The notes beneath the pieces are model-generated. The model had not been told where the DNA came from. It did no database searches and saw nothing but the letters and a program-made list of their open reading frames with translations. The translations under genes and the position numbers were made by a program. Shown here in pieces: positions 2,129 to 50,954 of a stretch of DNA of 64,000 nt. Origin of the DNA: Barthelona sp. PCE (lineage: Eukaryota). Each line of letters opens with the position of its first letter. Position 1 is the stretch's first letter. Where the stretch lies: NCBI GenBank assembly GCA_040285745.1, contig JAUFOR010000004.1, positions 868,001-932,000 on the forward strand, in the 5' to 3' direction.

Positions 2129-4393
2129 ATGTCCTTTTCCTGGGGTATCAAACTTCCGTTTACATATGAATCCCGATTCATACCATACTTAAAGCGCGAA
2201 AAGCATGTTAAACTTAGGAAAGAAGCAAGTAGAAACATATCGAAAAAAAGTAACTTCTCTTTCTTTAGTATTAAATCTAAACTTAGTCATTTATTATGTA
2301 GAATGGAATCTTTTAAGTGTGATTTTCCTGTTATAAAACTTTCAAACGGTCATCCCAACAGAGTTCCCAAAAAACTATTCTCCTACTATTCTCCTCTCAT
2401 AATACCAAAAAAAATGCCGCTTTTTGCTCAAAATGAGAGGTTTAGGTATTTAAAAACAATTTTTAAACTGCAAAAAAATGATACTCCAACCATTTTCAAA
2501 AAAGTATCAAAAAAATCTAACCATAAACTCTTGCCCATACTTCAATCAATCTTGAACGTGCCTGTTATACATCAAAAAGTGGGTGTGTATCAAGAAAAAC
2601 CAGAAAATTCATCATGCTTTGTTCCAAACATTCATCGTTGGAGAAAAAGAATGAAGGGAATCTGCGTCTCTCCCTTAAACACCATCAGGAAACCCTTAAC
2701 AGACATGTTCTCTGTCTCACAGTGCTTTACCATTGCAAGAGCAAAGATAAAGCGTATTAAACGTTTCAGATGCCCTGAATACAAATTCACAACATACTAT
2801 AGCAGAAACAGAGAGCAGCGTGCCTCTCTTCCATCATGTGATTTGAGAATCGATATCAACCACGTTTCACCAAGGAAAACTGCACGCGAACCCTTTTTTG
2901 CACATGAGATCAAAATCATTCAGAAAAAGCTTGAATCTCCACTACAGCATGATGTGCCACAAACGCCCACCCCATTAACTAGTTACACACATATGAATGC
3001 ATCAGAAATAGTTCATCCCGTGTCAGAACAGACAACTGACGTATCCACTGCATTTGACATTGAAATTGCGGAGTTTGTGATGCAGCTGCAAAACACATCG
3101 TTGTTGTCGGTCGAAGAAAAGCGAGTTAAGTTCATGCACTTATCAACAACCGCTCCGCGCATCCTCCCTACACCAAACTTGCCCTGTATGGACAAGCAAT
3201 CGGGCGAGATTGTGATCTTGGAACCCGGGTACTCTATGTTCAGCTACGTATACTCTCGGAACGCACACGTTATCAGCGACTTCAAGCACGCAACAGCCGT
3301 AAACGCCATTATCAAAACACCAAATACAAATATTGTGCTGTATCCAAACGACATACGCTCTGCTCTTCAGCAACCGAACCTTGTCATCAGCGTTAATCAA
3401 TTCCGCGACAACATATCCTATATCTTAGGCTGCGGAAAGCCGATTGTTTTTGTTTCCGGTGCTTCCGCGATACCCACACTTGTAACCCTCAGGTACAACA
3501 CTGGTCCCGCGTATCAGAGAATGGCCAAACTCATACGCAGTTGGAACTCTGTACTCGAGCGATCCCAGGCGTCGTTTTCGAACAGCAAAAGCGTACAGAA
3601 CATGACTGCGCTCCTTGAGGTTATTAAAAGAATCCAACATCAATATATTATGTGCGGGCCTGAAACAGCACTAATCGTGATACAAACGATGTACAACAAG
3701 ATGCTACGCACGTCACTTCAGTTGAAACAAATTCTGAACATGCTGAAGGACGAGAGAACCAGTTTGCCACTCTTGCTAAAGGAGATGGGACAAAAAATCA
3801 ACGGAAGAGTCCGTGTAAGGGCGCAGACGGCCGCTCAGGCGTCATTCCTCATGGGAAAGGGCATACAAGCAAGCCATGATAGGTTAACTGATAATAGAGC
3901 TGGTGACTACAGTGCCATCGTCTGGATTAACGAGATAGACCCGATTGAGCTGTTGCTGTTCATCGACAGGCCCCACTGTCTTGCCATTGTTGAGATCACA
4001 ACAGTTTGTAATCAGCTGAACCTTGAGCTTGAACCGAATCCGTCTCTTACAGACTCGAAAAACGGAGCTGTACGTACGTTCCGCACGTTCAACGAGATGC
4101 AGACATCCTTTCGCAGACTCTCTGAACTCAGCAAAACCAATCAACTTACAACAGAATTGGTTCAAATATCGTTCAAGAAACGTTTATCCAACTCAAATGA
4201 GTTTGAGCCGCCCCTCAAAGAGAATCGACCGAGCACACCCAAGAGCTCGCTGTTGTCTTTCTCAACAATAGATCTCGGAATGAATAGATTGCATCAATAC
4301 GGAATGTTTGGCAACAATCAAGCACCCTACACAACACTGCCCAATCAAGTATACCACACAAGCCCTATGGCAATCAATACATCTCCCTATTAG
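2129..4393 (+). CDS. Hypothetical protein with basic, low-complexity N-terminus; true start uncertain
   Basis: 754-aa ORF; AGTAAA directly after the stop; no family recognised. Confidence 0.7.
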   Translation: MSFSWGIKLPFTYESRFIPYLKREKHVKLRKEASRNISKKSNFSFFSIKSKLSHLLCRMESFKCDFPVIKLSNGHPNRVPKKLFSYYSPLIIPKKMPLFAQNERFRYLKTIFKLQKNDTPTIFKKVSKKSNHKLLPILQSILNVPVIHQKVGVYQEKPENSSCFVPNIHRWRKRMKGICVSPLNTIRKPLTDMFSVSQCFTIARAKIKRIKRFRCPEYKFTTYYSRNREQRASLPSCDLRIDINHVSPRKTAREPFFAHEIKIIQKKLESPLQHDVPQTPTPLTSYTHMNASEIVHPVSEQTTDVSTAFDIEIAEFVMQLQNTSLLSVEEKRVKFMHLSTTAPRILPTPNLPCMDKQSGEIVILEPGYSMFSYVYSRNAHVISDFKHATAVNAIIKTPNTNIVLYPNDIRSALQQPNLVISVNQFRDNISYILGCGKPIVFVSGASAIPTLVTLRYNTGPAYQRMAKLIRSWNSVLERSQASFSNSKSVQNMTALLEVIKRIQHQYIMCGPETALIVIQTMYNKMLRTSLQLKQILNMLKDERTSLPLLLKEMGQKINGRVRVRAQTAAQASFLMGKGIQASHDRLTDNRAGDYSAIVWINEIDPIELLLFIDRPHCLAIVEITTVCNQLNLELEPNPSLTDSKNGAVRTFRTFNEMQTSFRRLSELSKTNQLTTELVQISFKKRLSNSNEFEPPLKENRPSTPKSSLLSFSTIDLGMNRLHQYGMFGNNQAPYTTLPNQVYHTSPMAINTSPY

Positions 4394-11092: not shown

Positions 11093-13852
11093 ATGAAGAA
11101 AGAACAGCAAGATGGGACGAAGGGGGACGATGAATTCAGCATGAATATTAAAGTTCGAAGTCACATACAGAATTTAAACGGTGAATCCTGTAATATTTCC
11201 GTTGTTTGCGCAGGACACGGTATCACCGACGAAACAGAGGACATATTAGTTGAACCAGAAGCATTTTTTGACAACACACACACATTTTCTGCATTTCCCA
11301 AATACACAAGCAATGTTTTTGCTGCAATTGACACTCTGACACTCAATCTCTCGCTAACCACAGATTTACAGGCGTCATCAACACCAGTGACCACACCCAC
11401 AGCAGGAAAGAGAACAGGTAAAGACAAAAAAGGATCAAAGGGAGACAGGTTGTCAATATTCCAAGAGGATATCAGCATTGACTTCATTTTATGCAACATC
11501 AAACGACGTGAGTTCTCCTTCCGGGTGGAAACACAAAACTTCGTTGGTTCAATCGATGTATGTATAATCTGTAACGAGTTTGTCCCGAGCGATGAGCTGC
11601 TGCGTGTGCGCCCCGTTGGCCTAGTGCTTAACCAGATTGAGGGGCTGCATCAGATGGTTGAGAATTGCAAACACCCGTTCATCAGACTCGTTGGTCCAAG
11701 CGGTTTTATCCAACGCGATTACTCGCCGAATATGTTTCTCATGCTGACCCTCGAGGACATGAAACCGGCAGATCTGCTGCAATACACGCGAGAGGGCGTC
11801 ATCAGGATCGAGGTGCACTCACTAGACCGAAAAAGACGTGGAGTAGAGGATAGTGAGTACAAGATCAAAATTTCATCGCTTGAGGAGTATGAGACTTACC
11901 TCAAAGCAAAGCAACCTGACCAGTTTTGTTATGTGGACGTTCCTCTTTGTGAGTTTCAGAATGTGAACACCAACTCAATCAATGTTTCTGTTCTTCCAGG
12001 AAGTTTCGAGCGCTTCTTTGTTGAAGACATCCGAAACGAGGTACGAACGCATGTCTTGATGCAACTGCGTGAGAAAGATAAGCCTGTGGCCAAGAAGGAC
12101 AAGAAGGGTAAGAAACAACAGCCTGTCCAGGAGCAGGTTGAACGGCCAAAGAGCTCGTTTGCATTCGTGGAGAATGAGGTGAAAAGACTGTGTGAAGAAC
12201 TATCACAAACCGTTGTCTCATTTGCAAACTACGACACGTCATTGGATTTCGATTTCGTTCTTCCGTTCCGCCCAGCAGACCTGACTAACGAAGAGTACGT
12301 CATGTTCGGGCGTCTCTTCTTCATAATGGACTACAATGAGTGTAGACTGCTTGAGTTGGTCTTGGACTGGATCACGGATCAGAACGCAGAGTCGCTCGAC
12401 TGTAGCATCGCCATGCTCACCGCAGCAAAGCTAACAGCCGATCAAAAGACATCAGGTGTCTCGATCGTAACAGGATTCCACGTCACTGACAAAAAGGTGC
12501 GCTACCTAATGTTGGAGGCTCCTCAAGTCATACTCACTGAGCTGCTGGAAGATCTGGACGAGATGATTAAGCAGGTCCGTGCTGACTTTGGCCTGCACGA
12601 GTACTCACGTGTGGTGTTGATTGAGCCACGTACGATATACAACTCAAAGCTGGCTTGGCGCCACCGGCTCTTTCCAGACCGCGACCTTTCATTCCATCCG
12701 CTTGTGCTAAAGACAGACATATTCACAATGGTTAAGGGGATGAACGTGCATTTTGACCATTTGTGCTTCAGTGCACTTGGTAAGTTGTTGGTGCTGCTTA
12801 AGGTTAGGAATTTGCTACAAGTTGACACCTCACAGTGCTTTCTTACATCTGCTGAGTTGGAGACGCTCGAGAGGTACTGCGGAGGTTCTGTTAGTGAAGC
12901 TGATATCATAGGTCAAGAATGGGAAACCTTGGTGGCTCACAACCCTCCTGAAGAGATAAAGGTGACGAAGGAGGAGGCAAAGAAGCGCGTCGTTGAGGCC
13001 CGTCGTCGTGCCAGATCAAGGCTTGATCACGATAACACCGAGTACGCAAACACGATTTACTACCGCGCCTTCTCCACTCCTCACGATTTCATCACAGAGA
13101 ATATCCTCAATGTTGCGACGCACGGAAAGACAAAGCGTCAGATCATCAGGGATCGCATGCCAGCACACGTTCTTGCAGCACTTGAAGAGGAGGCCGCTCG
13201 AGGTCACGTATATTCAGGTATGACTAGCACAGGTTATTTGAACGAGCTGGCTTCGATGGACATTGAAGAGCTGTCAAAGGGCAGGCCCAAAGAAGAAGTT
13301 GGAGAAAAGAAAAAACCAAATTTTGTAACATATACTGTACGCAGTACTGTAGAGAAGAGGAGATTGAAGAATGATCTTTCTGACTACCGCAAGGCTGAAC
13401 TTAATGAACCATGGGACGAACCAAAGCTCAAGGTGCACAGTGATGCACATAAGGGTAAACCGTTTTTGACACGTGTGAAGTGTGACGATTACTTTGGTGG
13501 AAAAGACGAAATGAAATCTGTGTTTATTGATTCTCAGAACGTGGAGAAAAAGGAACAGGTCCAGAGTCCGATGCAAATACACGATAAACCGTTTATGGGA
13601 TGCGGAAACCCGCCTAAGAATGGACCATTGTTATGGGATAAGCCCCAGAAGAAGGGGCTGACCATTATTAAGGGTAAACCCGCTATAGACGAGGCTGAAC
13701 TGCAGAAATCAATCCACATTGAAAATTCTTACTCTATTTACGACGTCTATCCTGAGTTACTCTTTGCACGTCCTGTTTATGAAGAGAATGATAAGGGTGA
13801 ATCCTTTGACACAACAATTGTATTTAACAAAACAAAGAGCTATATGAAGTAA
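11093..13852 (+). CDS. CFAP92: Cilia/flagella-associated protein, CFAP92/FAP92-like
   Basis: FGRLFFIMDY, IVTGFHVTDKKVRYLMLE and IYNSKLAWRHRLF resemble conserved CFAP92 blocks as recalled. Confidence 0.65.
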   Translation: MKKEQQDGTKGDDEFSMNIKVRSHIQNLNGESCNISVVCAGHGITDETEDILVEPEAFFDNTHTFSAFPKYTSNVFAAIDTLTLNLSLTTDLQASSTPVTTPTAGKRTGKDKKGSKGDRLSIFQEDISIDFILCNIKRREFSFRVETQNFVGSIDVCIICNEFVPSDELLRVRPVGLVLNQIEGLHQMVENCKHPFIRLVGPSGFIQRDYSPNMFLMLTLEDMKPADLLQYTREGVIRIEVHSLDRKRRGVEDSEYKIKISSLEEYETYLKAKQPDQFCYVDVPLCEFQNVNTNSINVSVLPGSFERFFVEDIRNEVRTHVLMQLREKDKPVAKKDKKGKKQQPVQEQVERPKSSFAFVENEVKRLCEELSQTVVSFANYDTSLDFDFVLPFRPADLTNEEYVMFGRLFFIMDYNECRLLELVLDWITDQNAESLDCSIAMLTAAKLTADQKTSGVSIVTGFHVTDKKVRYLMLEAPQVILTELLEDLDEMIKQVRADFGLHEYSRVVLIEPRTIYNSKLAWRHRLFPDRDLSFHPLVLKTDIFTMVKGMNVHFDHLCFSALGKLLVLLKVRNLLQVDTSQCFLTSAELETLERYCGGSVSEADIIGQEWETLVAHNPPEEIKVTKEEAKKRVVEARRRARSRLDHDNTEYANTIYYRAFSTPHDFITENILNVATHGKTKRQIIRDRMPAHVLAALEEEAARGHVYSGMTSTGYLNELASMDIEELSKGRPKEEVGEKKKPNFVTYTVRSTVEKRRLKNDLSDYRKAELNEPWDEPKLKVHSDAHKGKPFLTRVKCDDYFGGKDEMKSVFIDSQNVEKKEQVQSPMQIHDKPFMGCGNPPKNGPLLWDKPQKKGLTIIKGKPAIDEAELQKSIHIENSYSIYDVYPELLFARPVYEENDKGESFDTTIVFNKTKSYMK

Positions 13853-27356: not shown

Positions 27357-27791
27357 ATGGCTCCTAACAAAGGTCCCTCTCGTAAGGTCCGCAAGTACCG
27401 CGGTATTGACGTTGTCGATCTCTTCAGCATGGAAGAGTCCGAGTTTATGAAGCTCCTCCCTTCTAGAATCCGCAGAAAGTTCACCCGTGGTCTCCGCTTC
27501 AACGAAAGAGCACTCATTGAAAAGTGCATCAAGGCCAAGGATGCTGTTAAGGATCTTGTCGGTGTCAAGCCCAAGCCTGTTAAGACTCACCTTCGTTCTA
27601 TGATCGTACACCCCGCTATGGTTGGCTCTATCGTCGCTGTGTACAACGGTATTAACTTCAATGTTGTTGAAGTCCGTCCTGAGATGATTGGTTACTACCT
27701 TGGTGAATTCTCTCTCTCCTACAAGCCTGTGCAGCACGGTGATCCTGGTAAGGGAGCTACTCGTTCCAGTACCGCTACTGCCCTCAAGTAA
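27357..27791 (+). CDS. RPS15: 40S ribosomal protein S15 (uS19)
   Basis: KTHLRSMIVHPAMVGS, EMIGYYLGEFSLSYKPVQHG and GATRSS. Confidence 0.98.
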   Translation: MAPNKGPSRKVRKYRGIDVVDLFSMEESEFMKLLPSRIRRKFTRGLRFNERALIEKCIKAKDAVKDLVGVKPKPVKTHLRSMIVHPAMVGSIVAVYNGINFNVVEVRPEMIGYYLGEFSLSYKPVQHGDPGKGATRSSTATALK

Positions 27792-42297: not shown

Positions 42298-42315
42298 GCA
42301 TATTTTACTTTTATC

Positions 42316-43174
42316 ATGGCTAAGAATCAATTATCTCGTGCCCCTAAGCGTGCCTCCAAGAACGGTCCCAAGGCTGAAGCCGGCAAGGCCTCCCTCTTCG
42401 AAGCCAAGCCTAAGACTTACGGTGTCGCCGACATCCAGCCTAAGCGTGATTTGACTCACTTTGTCAAGTTCCCTCGCTATGTTCGCCTCCAGAGAACCAA
42501 GAAGGTTCTTCTTCAGCGTGTCAAGCAACCTGGTAACATTAATCAGTTCAACCATACTCTTTCTGCCAACGTTCTCAACGAGATCAACGCTATGGTCATG
42601 AAGAAGTACCGTCCTGAGTCTACCCAGGAGAAGAAGGTGCGTATTCGCGCTAACGCCGAGGCTCGTCTTCAGGAAGGTGAGACCACTGATGCTCCTCTTG
42701 CTGTTAAGTTTGGTATCAACTTTGTCACCAAGCTCATCGAGCAGAAGAAGGCTAAACTGGTTCTCATTGCCGCTGATGTTGATCCCATCGAGGTATGATT
42801 TATTTATTCAGTTTTCAATGGGTTTTTTAGAGAGTTTACCCTCTCAATGACTTTTTTTAGGTTCCTTTTGGAACTGATGACCTAACCCGATATTTTCTTA
42901 CTTTTAGATTGTTATGTGGATGCCTGCTCTTTGCACCAAGATGGATATCCCCTACGCCATTGTTCCTTCCAAGTCTGTTCTTGGTAAGATGGTTCACCTC
43001 AAGACTGCCGCTTGTGTTGCCGTCACCGACGTTCTCGCTGCTGATGAGGCTAAGTTTGTTAAGTTCTGCGACCACTGTCGTATGGAGTTCAACGATAACT
43101 ACGCCATTCGTCAGAGAGAGCTTGGTGGCCTCAAGCTTTCCGATAAGTCTACTCACAAGAACTCTAAGCAGTAA
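42316..43174 (+). CDS. RPL7A: 60S ribosomal protein L7a (eL8); exons 42316-42792 and 42908-43174
   Basis: IQPKRDLTHFVKFPRYVRLQR and LVLIAADVDPIE|IVMWMPALC.KMDIPY. Splicing restores the continuous L7Ae-family motif. Confidence 0.97.
42793..42907 (+). other. Phase-0 spliceosomal intron, 115 nt
   Basis: GTATGA 5' site, CTAAC branch point (42882-42886) and polypyrimidine tract ending TTTTAG. Removal joins GAG|ATT in frame. Confidence 0.95.
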
Positions 43175-43504
43175 TGATAACTCACAAGTAAAGCACATCA
43201 CCAAAAGAATTGTATTGCATCATTATTATAAAACAGAAACGAACTGCATTACCAATAAACAAATCATCTCTTTTAATTCACTTTCAAGTACCAAATATTG
43301 ATAAAACCTCATCGACATAACTAACAATCTCATCAAATAGCTAAACTGAGAATGGACCCCCGAAAAGCCAAAATTCTAAAACACGTTTTTGTGTCATTTA
43401 AATATGTGTACATGTTTATTTAAACTAAAAAACGACAGAAAATCCAGTAAAATGTCTGAAATAACTTTACAACCTGTTAACCCTTTTTTAACATTAATCC
43501 TACA

Positions 43505-45145
43505 ATGCAAATAGAACAAATTTCATTCCTACAATCCAAACGCGAGCAAGAAACTGGCCTAGAACACAACTTTGGTATTCTACCTCTCAAGGTACCAAGT
43601 GGTGATGTTATGAACAGTAAGTACAATATTGTAATCCAATCAGACAGATCCGGTAGTATGGCCCTTGACGCCAGTCAAGAAGGAGGACAAACTTGTATGC
43701 AGCTTACTAAGAAAACTATTAAGTCAATTATTAAGTTTCTTGGTGATATCTCAACTAAAAGCAATGTTGAGATCATACTGACGATTCTTTTCTTCGACCA
43801 TGCTGTTGAAGCCTGCTTTGAGACCATAGCTGTCACCAAAGAAAACGCTCAAGAGCTTTGTGATCAAGTTGAACAGTGGGACTCTCGTGGCCAAACAAAC
43901 ATGTTTGATGCCATCAATCGCTGTGAAGAGTACTACCGTGAGGAATACCAGAACATATCTATCAATCTCACAGATGGTCAGCCCAACTGCTCTCACACAA
44001 AATCACACCAAATGCAACGCAATCTGAACCCAATAGTGCGTGACAACTTCGAACACAACCTTATCGGCTTTGGTATGAGTCACAATGAGAAGTTATTGTA
44101 TACTCTCTCTAAACTCCTCAAAGGTGATTATTATTTTGTTGACAACGTCGAAAACTGTGGTATGATCTACGGTGAGATTCTTAACAAAGTTCTGTATAAG
44201 CGCTACACAGACATTGAACTGTCCAGCGAGATTATTGAGTTCTACGACCACCTAACGGGTGACTGGGTGAAAAATCTCAAGATCAAGTCAATGTTCTGTG
44301 ACGAAGAGGATACCATCCACCTTCGAATGGGATGGGACGTTGCCATCGCTGAACCTCTTGTCGTAAAGATCAAGTATACCGATTTGGAAGAAAATGAAGT
44401 CATTGAGCAAGATATGCTTATTGGTGCTGACGTTTATGACTCCAGCGCAGAATCCCCTATCGGTGACAGAGATCTTGAGGTGCACAAGTACCTTTTCCGC
44501 CAACGTGCCGTTGAGCTCATGTTCCAGTTTAATGAGAAATATTCTATCGAGCATGAAGACAATAAGCTTCCAAACCTTATCACTCCCGGACCAGCACCTT
44601 TAAAGATCAGGCGAAAAACGAAGAGACCAACCAGACCGCCTGTTCAGGCATTCCAACCTGAACCTCAACCTCAACCTCAACCTACCGAGTTGGATGAGCT
44701 GAAGGGAAAGGTCGAGACTCTCTTTGAGGAGATCAAGGTCTTCATCACCGATAAAGGGCTCGATGACGACCTCTTCATGACTCAGATCTTGGATGATCTC
44801 AGTGTTACGTTCCAGCAGATCGAGTTGAGTTCTGAAACAAACAACCGCGCTACTAATGTTTTCGGACTTGGTAGATATATCTCTCAATGTCGTCACAGAG
44901 CCTACAATATTGCCCAATGCGATTTTGAGAGCCTCAATCCCACCCCCCAAGTAAGAGCTTTTGGAGCATCAAGGGCTGCTATGGGTGCACCAATGCTTGC
45001 TATGGCTGGTGTTGCTCCTTCTGGTCCTCCTGGAGCCGGTAGAATGAGGAAAAAGAAGTCAATTGTATCGCATAAACAATCATCCAATGTTTTCAACGCC
45101 TATGCCAATGAACTGCAACAAGACATCATGACTTCTTTGAAGTAA
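43505..45145 (+). CDS. von Willebrand factor A domain protein, copy 1
   Basis: MIDAS DRSGS...GQTN...LTDG; IGFG; Pro/Gln-rich linker. Confidence 0.9.
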   Translation: MQIEQISFLQSKREQETGLEHNFGILPLKVPSGDVMNSKYNIVIQSDRSGSMALDASQEGGQTCMQLTKKTIKSIIKFLGDISTKSNVEIILTILFFDHAVEACFETIAVTKENAQELCDQVEQWDSRGQTNMFDAINRCEEYYREEYQNISINLTDGQPNCSHTKSHQMQRNLNPIVRDNFEHNLIGFGMSHNEKLLYTLSKLLKGDYYFVDNVENCGMIYGEILNKVLYKRYTDIELSSEIIEFYDHLTGDWVKNLKIKSMFCDEEDTIHLRMGWDVAIAEPLVVKIKYTDLEENEVIEQDMLIGADVYDSSAESPIGDRDLEVHKYLFRQRAVELMFQFNEKYSIEHEDNKLPNLITPGPAPLKIRRKTKRPTRPPVQAFQPEPQPQPQPTELDELKGKVETLFEEIKVFITDKGLDDDLFMTQILDDLSVTFQQIELSSETNNRATNVFGLGRYISQCRHRAYNIAQCDFESLNPTPQVRAFGASRAAMGAPMLAMAGVAPSGPPGAGRMRKKKSIVSHKQSSNVFNAYANELQQDIMTSLK

Positions 45146-45603
45146 CATGACCGTGTAAATAAAAAATTTTTACTTTGCACTTGTAATTTTTGTGTGAGAA
45201 GACAACCTGTTAAACTTCATTGAATTAAGCGCCTAATTCCGTCAATTACGGCTGAACAAGAAAATGGAACATTAATTTCAAAACAAAATATCTAAAAACC
45301 AATGGAGATCATATTGCATCATTATTATAAAACAGAAACGAACTGCATTACCAATAAACAAATCATCTCTTTTAATTCACTTTCAAGTACCAAATATTGA
45401 TAAAACCTCATCGACATAACTAACAATCTCATCAAATAGCTAAACTGAGAATGGACCCCCGAAAAGCCAAAATTCTAAAACACGTTTTTGTGTCATTTAA
45501 ATATGTGTACATGTTTATTTAAACTAAAAAACGACAGAAAATCCAGTAAAATGTCTGAAATAACTTTACAACCTGTTAACCCTTTTTTAACATTAATCCT
45601 ACA

Positions 45604-47244
45604 ATGCAAATAGAACAAATTTCATTCCTACAATCCAAACGCGAGCAAGAAACTGGCCTAGAACACAACTTTGGTATTCTACCTCTCAAGGTACCAAGTG
45701 GTGATGTTATGAACAGTAAGTACAATATTGTAATCCAATCAGACAGATCCGGTAGTATGGCCCTTGACGCCAGTCAAGAAGGAGGACAAACTTGTATGCA
45801 GCTTACTAAGAAAACTATTAAGTCAATTATTAAGTTTCTTGGTGATATCTCAACTAAAAGCAATGTTGAGATCATACTGACGATTCTTTTCTTCGACCAT
45901 GCTGTTGAAGCCTGCTTTGAGACCATAGCTGTCACCAAAGAAAACGCTCAAGAGCTTTGTGATCAAGTTGAACAGTGGGACTCTCGTGGCCAAACAAACA
46001 TGTTTGATGCCATCAATCGCTGTGAAGAGTACTACCGTGAGGAATACCAGAACATATCTATCAATCTCACAGATGGTCAGCCCAACTGCTCTCACACAAA
46101 ATCACACCAAATGCAACGCAATCTGAACCCAATAGTGCGTGACAACTTCGAACACAACCTTATCGGCTTTGGTATGAGTCACAATGAGAAGTTATTGTAT
46201 ACTCTCTCTAAACTCCTCAAAGGTGATTATTATTTTGTTGACAACGTCGAAAACTGTGGTATGATCTACGGTGAGATTCTTAACAAAGTTCTGTATAAGC
46301 GCTACACAGACATTGAACTGTCCAGCGAGATTATTGAGTTCTACGACCACCTAACGGGTGACTGGGTGAAAAATCTCAAGATCAAGTCAATGTTCTGTGA
46401 CGAAGAGGATACCATCCACCTTCGAATGGGATGGGACGTTGCCATCGCTGAACCTCTTGTCGTAAAGATCAAGTATACCGATTTGGAAGAAAATGAAGTC
46501 ATTGAGCAAGATATGCTTATTGGTGCTGACGTTTATGACTCCAGCGCAGAATCCCCTATCGGTGACAGAGATCTTGAGGTGCACAAGTACCTTTTCCGCC
46601 AACGTGCCGTTGAGCTCATGTTCCAGTTTAATGAGAAATATTCTATCGAGCATGAAGACAATAAGCTTCCAAACCTTATCACTCCCGGACCAGCACCTTT
46701 AAAGATCAGGCGAAAAACGAAGAGACCAACCAGACCGCCTGTTCAGGCATTCCAACCTGAACCTCAACCTCAACCTCAACCTACCGAGTTGGATGAGCTG
46801 AAGGGAAAGGTCGAGACTCTCTTTGAGGAGATCAAGGTCTTCATCACCGATAAAGGGCTCGATGACGACCTCTTCATGACTCAGATCTTGGATGATCTCA
46901 GTGTTACGTTCCAGCAGATCGAGTTGAGTTCTGAAACAAACAACCGCGCTACTAATGTTTTCGGACTTGGTAGATATATCTCTCAATGTCGTCACAGAGC
47001 CTACAATATTGCCCAATGCGATTTTGAGAGCCTCAATCCCACCCCCCAAGTAAGAGCTTTTGGAGCATCAAGGGCTGCTATGGGTGCACCAATGCTTGCT
47101 ATGGCTGGTGTTGCTCCTTCTGGTCCTCCTGGAGCCGGTAGAATGAGGAAAAAGAAGTCAATTGTATCGCATAAACAATCATCCAATGTTTTCAACGCCT
47201 ATGCCAATGAACTGCAACAAGACATCATGACTTCTTTGAAGTAA
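45604..47244 (+). CDS. von Willebrand factor A domain protein, copy 2 (identical)
   Basis: Same 546-aa translation as copy 1. Confidence 0.9.
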   Translation: MQIEQISFLQSKREQETGLEHNFGILPLKVPSGDVMNSKYNIVIQSDRSGSMALDASQEGGQTCMQLTKKTIKSIIKFLGDISTKSNVEIILTILFFDHAVEACFETIAVTKENAQELCDQVEQWDSRGQTNMFDAINRCEEYYREEYQNISINLTDGQPNCSHTKSHQMQRNLNPIVRDNFEHNLIGFGMSHNEKLLYTLSKLLKGDYYFVDNVENCGMIYGEILNKVLYKRYTDIELSSEIIEFYDHLTGDWVKNLKIKSMFCDEEDTIHLRMGWDVAIAEPLVVKIKYTDLEENEVIEQDMLIGADVYDSSAESPIGDRDLEVHKYLFRQRAVELMFQFNEKYSIEHEDNKLPNLITPGPAPLKIRRKTKRPTRPPVQAFQPEPQPQPQPTELDELKGKVETLFEEIKVFITDKGLDDDLFMTQILDDLSVTFQQIELSSETNNRATNVFGLGRYISQCRHRAYNIAQCDFESLNPTPQVRAFGASRAAMGAPMLAMAGVAPSGPPGAGRMRKKKSIVSHKQSSNVFNAYANELQQDIMTSLK

Positions 47245-47997
47245 CATGACCGTGTAAATAAAAAATTTTTACTTTGCACTTGTAATTTTTGTGTGAGAAG
47301 ACAACCTGTTAAACTTCATTGAATTAAGCGCCTAATTCCGTCAATTACGGCTGAACAAGAAAATGGAACATTAATTTCAAAACAAAATATCTAAAAACCA
47401 ATGGAGATCATATTGGCTGTGACTAATGACTATTGGAAAAGGAGCCAACAATCCTAGCACCTCAGCTTAGTCTCTCGTTTTAACCATCATATCAGGCCTA
47501 AGAATGTTCAGAGAATCATTTGTGCTGCTTACAACAACATCTTTACCTTACTCTGCTAAAGTTACTTAGTTAAAGTTAAGCAGGTTTACTTTTATTGTGT
47601 TTCTAATCTAGAAATTGTCATTATCATTTTGATTTTTAGTATTTTTGAAGGATAAGATATATTAAATAAACTAAATCATTGCTGTTCTAAAGTTATAGAA
47701 AATAAATCTCCTTAAAATTTGTTTTTTAATAAATTTATATTGCACATGAATGATATATAAACAATAAAATACTTTAATACCATTAAAATTAATAAATTAT
47801 AATGGAATGAAGAGAAAAATAAAAATTTTTTAATGATCGTTGACACACTTTTAAATCAAATTAGAGGTACTAAAATAAGCCAATTCGTTCATTTTAAGGC
47901 TTATTTTTGTTATCTGACACTCATACGAATATATCACTTTTGTATTCAACAAAAAACATAAAAAAACTTATTTAGTAGTTGGTTTCCGAAATCAGTG

Positions 47998-48070
47998 GCC
48001 CGGGTAGCTTAGTCGGTAGAGCATCTGACTGTTAATCAGAAGGTCTGAGGTTCAAGTCCTCACCCAGGCG
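47998..48070 (+). tRNA. tRNA-Asn(GTT)
   Basis: Cloverleaf: GCCCGGG/CCCAGGC acceptor (one mismatch), TCTGA-CTGTTAA-TCAGA, TTCAAGT T-loop, T6 terminator. Confidence 0.93.
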
Positions 48071-48149
48071 CTTTTTTGCACTGAACATTATTGGTGGACG
48101 TAGTATTAAATGAGCAGCTTTAACGAAGGCTTCATTTCCGTCGAAAGAT

Positions 48150-48223
48150 GTTGGGATAGCTCAGTTGGTTAGAGCATCTGCCTAACACGCAGGGGGTCCC
48201 CGGTTCAAATCCGGGTCTCAATA
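48150..48223 (+). tRNA. tRNA-Val(AAC)
   Basis: GTTGGGA/TCTCAAT acceptor, TCTGC-CTAACAC-GCAGG, CCCGG-TTCAAAT-CCGGG, T5 terminator. Confidence 0.93.
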
Positions 48224-48324
48224 TTTTTGGTCTTTTTTTGGCAAGCATATACATACAAACCATCCATCACTCGACGGGTTTCGCCTGTCCTGTAAAAAAC
48301 TGTGTAAAAAAAATTGTAAGTTAA

Positions 48325-48396
48325 TGTCAACACCGAGAATCGAACTCGGATTGCTGCCTCCACAGGGCAGTATAATAACCATTATATGATGTTGAC
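48325..48396 (-). tRNA. tRNA-His(GTG)
   Basis: Minus strand: GTCAACA/TGTTGAC, CTGCC-CTGTGGA-GGCAG, CCGAG-TTCGATT-CTCGG; A73; G-1 not encoded; T-run downstream. Confidence 0.93.
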
Positions 48397-49217
48397 TAGA
48401 TATAACGGAAAAATTGAACAACATTATATTATGGTATTTATAAACGACGACATATATTGTTTCTACACACATGTGAGAGGATGAACAGAACAAACCGTTG
48501 GACAGACTGGGTGCAGATCAATCAAAATATCACTGCACGCTACGTACCCCAGTGAGCTTGAATACTAAAACTTGTGTAACTAGGCTTATTCTTTCTTATG
48601 TATGATGTTCATTCAGTTGGTTATTTTAAGTTTTTTCTTTGATTTTCTTTCCGTTTTGTTACGTCTTGTGTCTCAACAGAAGAATCACATGTCAATATTT
48701 TGTTCAATACTTTAGTTCATCGTAAGGATAACAATATTTAACTCATAACATTTTTGGGTTGATATTACTGTTATCACTTTTATTAATGTTTTGAGGTGTC
48801 TTTTGCATAGCCACTGCTTTAAACATAAGAAAAAGCGATAAGATTCAAGAAAATGCCAAATAACTTTTTAAAGTTTTTTTCAAACTCTCACAATTATTCT
48901 TGCTGTGCTGTGCAACACACTAAGTAATGTATGTGTTAGAACCATTAAAACGTTTACATTTGTTTTGTTTCACTATGCATTTCATTATAAACCGTTAATT
49001 CCAACTTGGAAGAATTCTGAAGCGAGAATCACACATCTGAGAAGATGCAATAGTATGTTGAAAAATTTGAAGAAGAGGAGGAGTATTTCGTGGACTGCAT
49101 TCATAGACACCATAAGTTTTGACATACTGCTGAAAAAGTAAAAAGGACCACTGTTCCAAATAATGAACAAAGAATGAATACGTTTAAAAAAAAAATTATT
49201 CTGAAGTACGTTTATTG

Positions 49218-49475
49218 ACGTCTCACACGGGAACGCTCGCCTTCACACGTGGAGTGTGTTTCGTCCGGGAATTGGCTTAATGCCTTTTTTGAAAAGGGTA
49301 AGATAAACGGTATCGTGTTCGACGAACACTCTCCACACAGTAAACACAATATTTATAGTTTGGGAGTTGCGAACTACCGTGCTGTATTTGTGCTGAGGAT
49401 TGTTTTATAGCCCCTCTTTTCTTTTTTAAAAAGGGGAGAAAGAAATGAAGTGGAGTATTCACGGAATACTCGATG
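49218..49475 (+). ncRNA. Candidate structured non-coding RNA, class unknown
   Basis: Several long hairpins with plus-strand G-U pairs in a non-coding region that is locally GC-richer. Confidence 0.4.
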
Positions 49476-50010
49476 AACAGTAGCGTGCTTGCTCTTTAGA
49501 TGAACTTTCCCTGATGATTTTGAGGCTACTTAAATTTTAATTTTTCTCTTAGGTCTCCATCTTTGAATTTGGTTTGGTGTTTACATAAAATTATAGCCTT
49601 CATGATCCTACTTCACAATTAACAGTACACGTCTGTTCCACAAGCATAGGAATTTGTAACATATGCAATTGAGCAATTGAAAAGGAAGTACTGTGTAAGG
49701 ATATATAAGTGACACTTTTCAGGCATTGGTTTACATAAGAACACAGATCTGATGTGGAATTGCCAGCATACATATGTGAGTTTGTAAAGAGCGTTTAAAA
49801 ATTCAATCTATGCTTTACAAGAACAAAATTGCTAATACTTTTCCAACCCTTTTCCATAACAGTTCTAAAACTTGTTTAAATATCTGAGTAGACAATATGG
49901 GCAAAAAGAATGAATTCGTTAACAATATAAGATGAAGTTTAGAGGAAATATTAACGATGAAGAGGAATAACGATAAAATTTAACATAACAATGTTGATTT
50001 AAACCTAATA

Positions 50011-50537
50011 ATGACTGAAATTTGTAATGAAATTACTATAAGAAACCCTAAAGATGAATTACATTTTAGTGCTTTAGACTTCTTTAAAGAACATATTGAC
50101 ACGCTTGAGTCTCGCAAGGATGGGCAATTTTCGTTGCCTCAATCCGCCGTTTCCCCATTTGGCAAGTATTCAAGCAAACAAAATCAAATAGGCGTGATTT
50201 ATGTAGATTCGAGTGATTTCAGTACAATATCTGATGATCTCAACTTTTTTGTAACCCAGGAAGCGAACATCAAGTAATTTGTTTGATATTATAAAATCTG
50301 GATCCGATGATTATATACAACATTCTTTACTGGTTGAAAGTGATGATGAAAGTGGGTTTAAAGAATTTGATGGGGTATCATAGTTCACTTTCGTGTTTGG
50401 AGGATCCAATTTTACTGTTACTTGAACAATTGAATAGTATATTATCTTCATGTGTTTTGACAATAATTGCACACCATATTCGATTCGAGTATATGTTGAA
50501 AATCCGTTTGACCTCTATCATTACCATTTGCAATAAT
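50011..50537 (+). pseudogene. Possible decayed gene fragment
   Basis: 88-aa ORF followed in a shifted frame by protein-like sequence (FDIIKSGSDDYIQHSLLVE...CTPYSIRVYVENPFDLY) broken by three stops. Confidence 0.25.
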
Positions 50538-50954
50538 AAAACTCGATGTAAACTCATTTGAATTTTTTCCTCCCTTTTTACGTTTTTGCCATTTAACATT
50601 TACCATTGTAGGTTGGAGGATTTTGCATCGGGGCTATGTTTGTTGAGATGACGCATTGATTTTAGCATTCCGCATCATTTTTTCATAAAAAATTTTGTTT
50701 AAGGATTTACACAGTCTACGAAGTATGATCTATGATGGCAAGTTGATCTCATGTTGCCGAACTACACTTTTTTGTTCTTACAGTGTAAGCACAAAGAAAA
50801 AAAGTTGGAAATGTTTTCACCACAAGTAAAGAGAGTTTGTTAATATCAACACCATATTCAATCTAACAGCAGTTTTTAGCTACTGTACAGCAACCATAGC
50901 CATCTATACATCTTTATTACTGTGCTTATTGTTTTCTATACATCTTTTACACTC

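Follow-up and report, generated by a model that had tools for sequence, protein, structure and literature searches.

A retained ancient eL8 intron in Barthelona sp. PCE with a probably fortuitous K-turn-like match at its splice signals

Why does the gene for ribosomal protein eL8 (RPL7A) keep an intron in Barthelona sp. PCE, and does the complementarity between the two ends of this intron serve a regulatory purpose? Barthelona sp. PCE is a free-living metamonad whose 10.2-Mb genome (40.3% GC) is the smallest known for a free-living eukaryote, and barthelonids are the sister group of Fornicata (PMC11316075). The 64-kb stretch of DNA analyzed here, referred to as the window, is gene-dense, with 37 ORFs of at least 150 aa separated by spacers that are often 50–100 nt long and with products that include a kinesin, an ORC2-like protein, a PIG-V mannosyltransferase and a pseudouridine synthase. 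A sequence-only reading of this stretch had proposed that the 5′ splice site and branch-point region of the eL8 intron join in a kink-turn (K-turn), that free eL8 or Snu13 locks this fold to block splicing, and that such a feedback could explain the survival of the intron.

The ORF located at 42316–42798 encodes the first 159 residues of eL8, then stops. The exon 1 translation is 100% identical to the annotated 247-aa Barthelona sp. PCE protein P0044, which is the product of the spliced eL8 gene. The runner-up match reached 54%, and no closer relative was found in the protein collection searched. The assignment of eL8 to the L7Ae family is borne out by a PF01248 domain (L7Ae/L30e family; Pfam, E 4e-22) and by matches to the eL8 chains of solved ribosomes at E 1e-60. 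At its 3′ end, position 42792, exon 1 reads ...GAU CCC AUC GAG. Within exon 2, a weak match to Hammerhead HH9 (43024–43089, + strand, E 0.043) was taken as a chance hit, as it scored 21 bits against a gathering score of 52.

In runs X1 and X2 of one study, one contig each joins the two exons directly from 42792 to 42908, skipping 115 nt with GT..AG ends. The joint-bearing contigs span 42308/42320 to 43069/43192, which gives the transcript extent. Both runs are labelled "DNA?"; we read their contigs as transcript assemblies because they omit precisely the intron and stop no more than about 20 nt from the limits of the gene. Should they be DNA after all, the joined form would have to come from a gene copy that lacks the intron. 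As assembled contigs they reveal the spliced form, the level of retention not being measurable from them, and the lack of coverage of the intron interior in all three runs (X1, X2 and X3) is likewise silent on retention, X3 having yielded no matching contig at all. We conclude that the eL8 intron is real and spliced. Unspliced eL8 RNA stops at once, as had been noted from the sequence, since the ORF 42316..42798 terminates at the in-frame GUA UGA.

The intron is rich in U (54 of 115 nt, 47%). The motif CUAAC at 42882–42886, part of CCUAAC at 42881–42886, is followed by a U-rich tract and by UUUUAG, and on the basis of the CUAAC consensus the putative branch-point A is assigned to position 42885. 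A loose regular-expression scan of the window for further introns returned well over a hundred matches, mostly within ORFs, from which no splice-site consensus was derivable. Two side observations concern the contigs. One transcript contig begins 8 nt upstream of the eL8 AUG (window 42308–42316), and the 5′ UTR of the mRNA may thus be only a few nt long, contig ends being weak evidence on this point. In run X2, a 76-nt contig with a depth of 548 (record 3) matches the end of exon 1 (window 42751–42791) with 6 differences in 41 positions and then runs on into an exon 2 of different sequence; it appears to stem from the spliced eL8 mRNA of a second organism present in that run. The features of the locus are collected in Table 1.

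Table 1. Features of the eL8 locus and three tRNA genes, in window positions.
Feature	Position	Strand	Description and basis
eL8 (RPL7A) exon 1	42316..42792	+	477 nt, 159 codons, ends ...DVDPIE; ORF, 100% protein match, contig pieces stop at 42792
Competing local hairpin	42784..42822	+	CCCAU/AUGGG, GAGG/UUUC, UGA/UCA; -9.6 kcal/mol; pairs the 5′ splice site; MFE and centroid folds
Candidate K-turn bulged strand, AUCG-AGG-UAU-GA-U-UUA	42787..42802	+	Exon end and 5′ splice site; reads AUCGAGGUAUGAUUUA
Spliceosomal intron	42793..42907	+	115 nt, phase 0, GUAUGA...CCUAAC...UUUUAG; contig joints, sequence
5′ splice site GUAUGA	42793..42798	+	Sequence; in-frame GUA UGA is a stop if unspliced
Internal hairpin GAGAG/CUCUC	42830..42846	+	-6.3 kcal/mol
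Internal hairpin GGUUCC-UUUU-GGAACU	42860..42875	+	-6.9 kcal/mol; its last base, U42875, is in the last pair of the proposed NC stem
Candidate K-turn non-bulged strand, UGA-U-GA-CCU-aacc-CGAU	42875..42891	+	Overlaps the branch-point region; reads UGAUGACCUAACCCGAU
Putative branch-point region CCUAACC	42881..42887	+	Branch A 42885, 22 nt upstream of the 3′ AG; CUAAC consensus
eL8 exon 2	42908..43174	+	88 codons plus stop; begins IVMWMPALC
tRNA Asn-GTT	47998-48071	+	
tRNA Val-AAC	48149-48224	+	
tRNA His-GTG	48325-48396	-	

We then compared the position of this intron with that of introns in other eL8 genes. Exon 2 opens with a residue that aligns to position 162 of the yeast L8-A chain (10zy_G, 256 aa), which places the intron at yeast eL8 161|162 (DVDPIE|LVV), and the junction E159|I160 falls on DVDPIE|L in all five alignments shown to eL8 chains. 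In Giardia, Rpl7a contains a 109-nt phase-0 intron after yeast position 161, termed ancient (PMC1201135; Russell, Shutt, Watkins & Gray 2005). The site is common to animals, Amoebozoa, jakobids, malawimonads and Trimastix (PMC1201135), and Spironucleus vortens also has an Rpl7a intron there (PMC6679479; Hudson et al. 2019). When metagenome contigs were scanned for the pattern DVDPIE plus a following GT..G, at least 120 stretches were obtained. At least eight environmental eL8 genes carry GT directly after DVDPIE (eight among the 120 stretches listed), five of which contain an entire same-site intron, of 56, 161, 222, 284 and 773 nt, respectively. One of the five, the 56-nt intron of an environmental eukaryote (L071, minus strand, from oriented position 255), shares the GUAUGA donor with Barthelona and is followed by a similar exon 2 start (IVMWLP); its protein identity is only 40–46% and it has no K-turn-like motif.

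These results identify 42793–42907 as the ancient phase-0 Rpl7a/eL8 intron, a new instance, in barthelonids, of a known intron. Its agreement with the introns described in PMC1201135 and PMC6679479 extends to the gene, the codon boundary (DVDPIE|, yeast 161|162), the phase and the GT..AG ends, and the intron is removed from the mRNA. In size it approximates the Giardia Rpl7a intron (115 and 109 nt), and both reside in intron-poor metamonads. That barthelonids, too, keep this ancient intron, which serves as a marker for the early history of introns, is a modest but solid result. The same intron is kept in many lineages, and a Barthelona-specific explanation of its survival is therefore not needed. 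The proposal that the fold is the reason why the intron survives is weakened accordingly, the position being kept across many eukaryotic groups without the K-turn motif.

The Barthelona intron differs from its metamonad counterparts in the layout of its 3′ end: 22 nt separate its putative branch point from the 3′ AG, whereas introns of Giardia and Trichomonas have a fused end of the ACTAACACACAG type. At least this one intron in the sister lineage of Fornicata has a conventional branch-point layout, which bears on how metamonad splicing signals changed. Its predicted structure is also far weaker. Folded alone, the intron has an MFE of -18.1 kcal/mol (z -1.03, with 14.4% of 500 shuffles equally stable), whereas the Rpl7a intron of Giardia (109 nt) is listed with -43.6 kcal/mol, obtained by a comparable RNAfold procedure, and a splicing efficiency of 64% (PMC10711314). 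For a 136-nt region around the intron the energy was -24.0 kcal/mol (z -0.44), a value reached by 66 of 200 shuffles.

These values bear on the possibility that the complementarity aids splicing, the internal hairpins and a short helix between the exon end and the branch-adjacent sequence shortening the path from donor to branch point. Hudson et al. 2019 (PMC6679479) proposed such shortening for long introns in Giardia, Spironucleus and Trichomonas, among them introns of Rpl7a. When the splice signals are kept single-stranded, the Barthelona intron folds to an effective single-stranded length of 47 of 115 nt, and a 6-bp register of AUCG(A)GG with CCCGAU (-5.4 kcal/mol) would set the donor beside the branch-point A. 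However, the intron folds no better than its shuffles, alone or with its flanks, its MFE is far from that listed for Giardia, and the bridging helix has a probability of about 0.05. The extensive pairing and fused branch point that characterize the structured introns of diplomonads and parabasalids were not found (z -1.03; branch point 22 nt from the 3′ splice site, unlike in Giardia, Spironucleus and Trichomonas). We consider a splicing-promoting role of this kind quite improbable.

What, then, is the standing of the proposed K-turn? All the bases and pairs claimed for 42787–42802 and 42875–42891 are indeed present. An outer helix can be drawn from A42787-U42891, U42788-A42890, C42789-G42889 and G42790-C42888. 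It is succeeded by 4 bulged nt, among them the putative branch A 42885, and by a C stem of A42791-U42883, G42792-C42882 and G42793-C42881. The UAU bulge comes next, then G42797.A42880 and A42798.G42879, U42799.U42878, and an NC side composed of U42800-A42877, U42801.G42876 and A42802-U42875. In this drawing the GU donor corresponds to G42793/U42794. K-turns of the box C/D and U4 type have U at L3, U.U at 3b.3n and a G-C pair at -1b.-1n, and the candidate shows the same three details, which we take to place it in this type. By sequence, a 3-nt bulge is followed by G and A facing A and G, as expected of a K-turn. The stems are short: the C stem has only 3 bp (AGG/CCU) before the 4-nt bulge and 4 bp more, and the NC stem, taken as a duplex, amounts to +2.0 kcal/mol. 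A local K-turn built on the hairpin 42860–42875 was also considered and rejected, as the bases that precede it are U and A, not G and A.

The model built on this candidate is that free eL8, or its paralogue Snu13, binds the K-turn formed by the exon 1/5′ splice-site strand and the UGAUGACCU element, clamps both donor and branch-point region and so keeps the spliceosome from assembling. Since unspliced RNA stops at GUA UGA, eL8 that is not bound in ribosomes would in this way reduce its own production, and the cell would have a reason to keep the intron. Besides the presence of all the motif features in the sequence, the model draws on the eL8 product itself, which belongs to a K-turn-binding family (PF01248), and on precedents. 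The autoregulation of L30 and of archaeal L7Ae, invoked by the sequence-only reading, is indeed in print: on binding a structure close to its own 5′ splice site, free L30 blocks U2 (PMC8047918), and archaeal L7Ae binds a K-turn in its own mRNA leader (PMC5539422, PMC6298567). In mammalian cells, intronic K-loops bound by 15.5K repress the excision of their host intron (preprint 10.64898/2026.08.03.742641). The prior for some splicing feedback on eL8 is further raised because eL8 (L7A) genes produce unproductive NMD-targeted isoforms in C. elegans and are reported to be autoregulated by alternative splicing in human cells (PMC8047918). If the model were true, an ancient intron would owe its persistence, in the smallest genome known from a free-living eukaryote, to a role as the sensor in a feedback loop of eL8, eL8 would be the third L7Ae-family member, after L30 and archaeal L7Ae, to control itself through a K-turn, and there would be a concrete selective reason for the introns kept in ribosomal protein genes of intron-poor genomes.

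Structure predictions do not favor this arrangement. The proposed pairing was absent from the MFE and centroid folds of the 136-nt region, which contained local hairpins only. For 42760–42930, the K-turn helices alone amount to +2.8 kcal/mol, and the best fold that includes them reaches -23.4 kcal/mol versus an MFE of -30.3 kcal/mol, so that forcing them costs 6.9 kcal/mol. The outer 4 bp have pair probabilities of at most 0.054, the C stem has 0.004 and the NC stem about 0. Some 80 nt separate the two strands. In a more stable register, G42792 and G42793 are paired with C42887 and C42886, and the K-turn geometry is lost. The local hairpin that pairs the 5′ splice site (Table 1), with partner probabilities of 0.42–0.45, would form first during transcription. 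The claim of a canonical K-turn thus holds for the sequence definition, the UAU bulge and GA facing AG, and fails for the fold, the pairs of which are not formed in these predictions. These models treat RNA alone, and protein-induced folding lies outside them; because a K-turn with a regulatory role should adopt its fold only once L7Ae is bound (PMC6298567), the negative folding results do not refute a protein-induced fold.

We next estimated how often such a motif arises by chance. A narrow test kept the 5′ strand constant and scored features selected post hoc. Of 20000 shuffles of each kind, 54 mononucleotide and 506 dinucleotide ones contained a core motif of equal or better quality, as did 21 of 3645 real 105-nt pieces taken from the window. 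When the 4-bp extension was included, the counts dropped to 3 and 28 of 20000, respectively, and 6 of 3645. These rates, 0.27–2.5% of shuffles for the core and 0.015–0.16% with the extension, speak for the autoregulation model, as does the fact that the eL8 pre-mRNA contains no second motif of that quality and that this one coincides with the donor and the branch-point region. A broader test, in which either orientation was allowed and one strand had to cover the GU, gave 93 of 2000 shuffles (4.65%), and this for the one site alone. On both strands of the window (128 kb) there are 148 motifs of equal core quality, or 1.16 per kb, mostly in coding sequence; 25 of these look-alikes have the extension helix and 10 have U.U at 3b.3n. 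Among 8451 GA sites, 1.7% have such a partner at most 120 nt away. Energy-based K-turn statistics were uninformative, as one was dominated by a candidate in the fixed exon and the other excluded the 42787/42875 candidate for its unfavorable NC duplex. We conclude that the chance level is about 1–5% for this one site; were hits in the leader, at the start codon and at the 3′ splice site accepted as well, it would rise several-fold. The K-turn-like motif is common as such; what is unusual is its place.

The sequence-only reading had also proposed a comparison with RPL7A introns of related taxa. No motif of equal quality was found at the 5′ splice site of the five complete same-site environmental introns (56–773 nt), those five genes being distant (40–63% protein identity to Barthelona in aligned pieces) and uninformative on a lineage-specific element. 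The best motif tiers in these introns were 1, 0, 2, 0 and 2, and chance levels for the two tier-2 motifs were 1.0 and 0.81. This comparison indicates that the K-turn is not an ancestral property of the eL8 intron, which is all that the 0/5 shows, and to that extent it counts against the autoregulation model.

Comparison with the described systems adds to these points. Like yeast RPL30 (eL30), the Barthelona gene encodes an L7Ae-family ribosomal protein, its element includes its own donor site, and a block of spliceosome assembly is proposed. The partner strand of the yeast L30 element is the 5′ leader; that of Barthelona is an intronic segment some 80 nt distant, which partly coincides with the branch-point region, and the flanking helices are very weak. 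Binding and regulation have been demonstrated for yeast RPL30 (PMC8047918), whereas the Barthelona eL8 element is a candidate from sequence alone. Archaeal L7Ae belongs to the same protein superfamily, and its K-turn is likewise expected to fold only on protein binding; it exerts translational control through a compact local leader hairpin (PMC5539422, PMC6298567), in contrast to the long-range intronic candidate of Barthelona, where the eL8 transcript probably has almost no 5′ UTR. The mammalian K-loop RNAs bound by 15.5K/SNU13 resemble the candidate in their intronic C/D-type GA motifs, in U.U at 3b.3n and in the proposed cis repression of the host intron (10.64898/2026.08.03.742641). They are compact, local (median 36 nt) and stable small RNAs (same preprint), whereas the Barthelona candidate consists of two strands that use exon bases and splice signals, with no small RNA known. 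Our literature search for a K-turn in eL8/RPL7A pre-mRNA found no paper. Given the background frequency of the motif, its marginal helices and the competing structures, we regard autoregulation through this element as unlikely.

Another potential origin of the C/D-like boxes is a box C/D snoRNA hosted by the intron, either as a remnant or as a working snoRNA-like or K-loop RNA bound by Snu13, with AUGAUUU at the donor and CUGAUGA at 42874–42880 as its boxes. The eL8 genes of other eukaryotes host such snoRNAs, as RPL7A does SNORD24 in animals. In agreement with the latter, an environmental eL8 gene (L069) has SNORD24 at 3623–3693 (-), with 52.1 bits against a gathering score of 41, in an upstream intron between the pieces aligned to P0044 residues 39–82 and 94–172. 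In the same-site intron of a second environmental gene (L020), 8 of the 11 weak Rfam matches are to CD-box families and fall on one stretch, 11173–11255 (+), where C, D′, C′ and D-like boxes can be recognized by eye. These CD-box matches are all far below gathering scores; the stretch may be an undescribed intron-hosted snoRNA. A preprint on mammalian klRNA is relevant here as well (10.64898/2026.08.03.742641). In the Barthelona intron itself, however, Rfam searches returned nothing relevant: CD-box families account for none of the five weak matches at E up to 10 and none of the three in another Rfam scan. A snoRNA terminal stem would need exon bases and hence could not survive splicing, the would-be guide region is the self-paired hairpin 42860–42875, and the D and C boxes (CUGA, UGAUGA) overlap at 42874–42880, which leaves no loop for a K-loop. 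We therefore rejected a box C/D snoRNA in this intron for lack of a CD-box Rfam match and on account of its terminal stem in the exon and its overlapping boxes, and a snoRNA origin of the boxes in general appears very improbable.

With gene identity, intron borders, splicing, positional homology and motif background frequency established by the analysis, the reading that we consider probable is that of an ordinary retained ancient eL8 intron, spliced as usual, with a fortuitous K-turn-like match. The spliceosome would remove 42793–42907 in the usual way by means of ordinary signals, namely GUAUGA, CCUAAC 22 nt before the AG and the U-rich tract. The K-turn-like pairing would be a chance match of a low-information motif rather than a protein-binding switch, and the GUAUGA donor, by supplying one GA, would help such a match to arise. 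The pairing itself presumably has no function.

A few further observations concern the rest of the window. An intron-less uS19 (RPS15) gene is located at 27357–27791 (PF00203, E 4e-27) and is preceded by about 600 nt without an ORF; inspection by eye revealed no 5′ UTR intron upstream of it, unlike the situation reported for Rps15 of Spironucleus vortens. From 47245 to 50950 extends a 3.7-kb AT-rich stretch (about 35% GC) without any ORF of at least 150 aa; within it lie the three tRNA genes given in Table 1. Starting 39 nt past the eL8 stop codon, a 2099-bp unit occurs twice in tandem (43213–47415) with 100% identity, the identical run being 2104 bases at an offset of 2099. Both copies carry an identical 546-aa vWA-domain gene (43505–45145 and 45604–47244), and the repeat may be a recent duplication or an assembly artefact.
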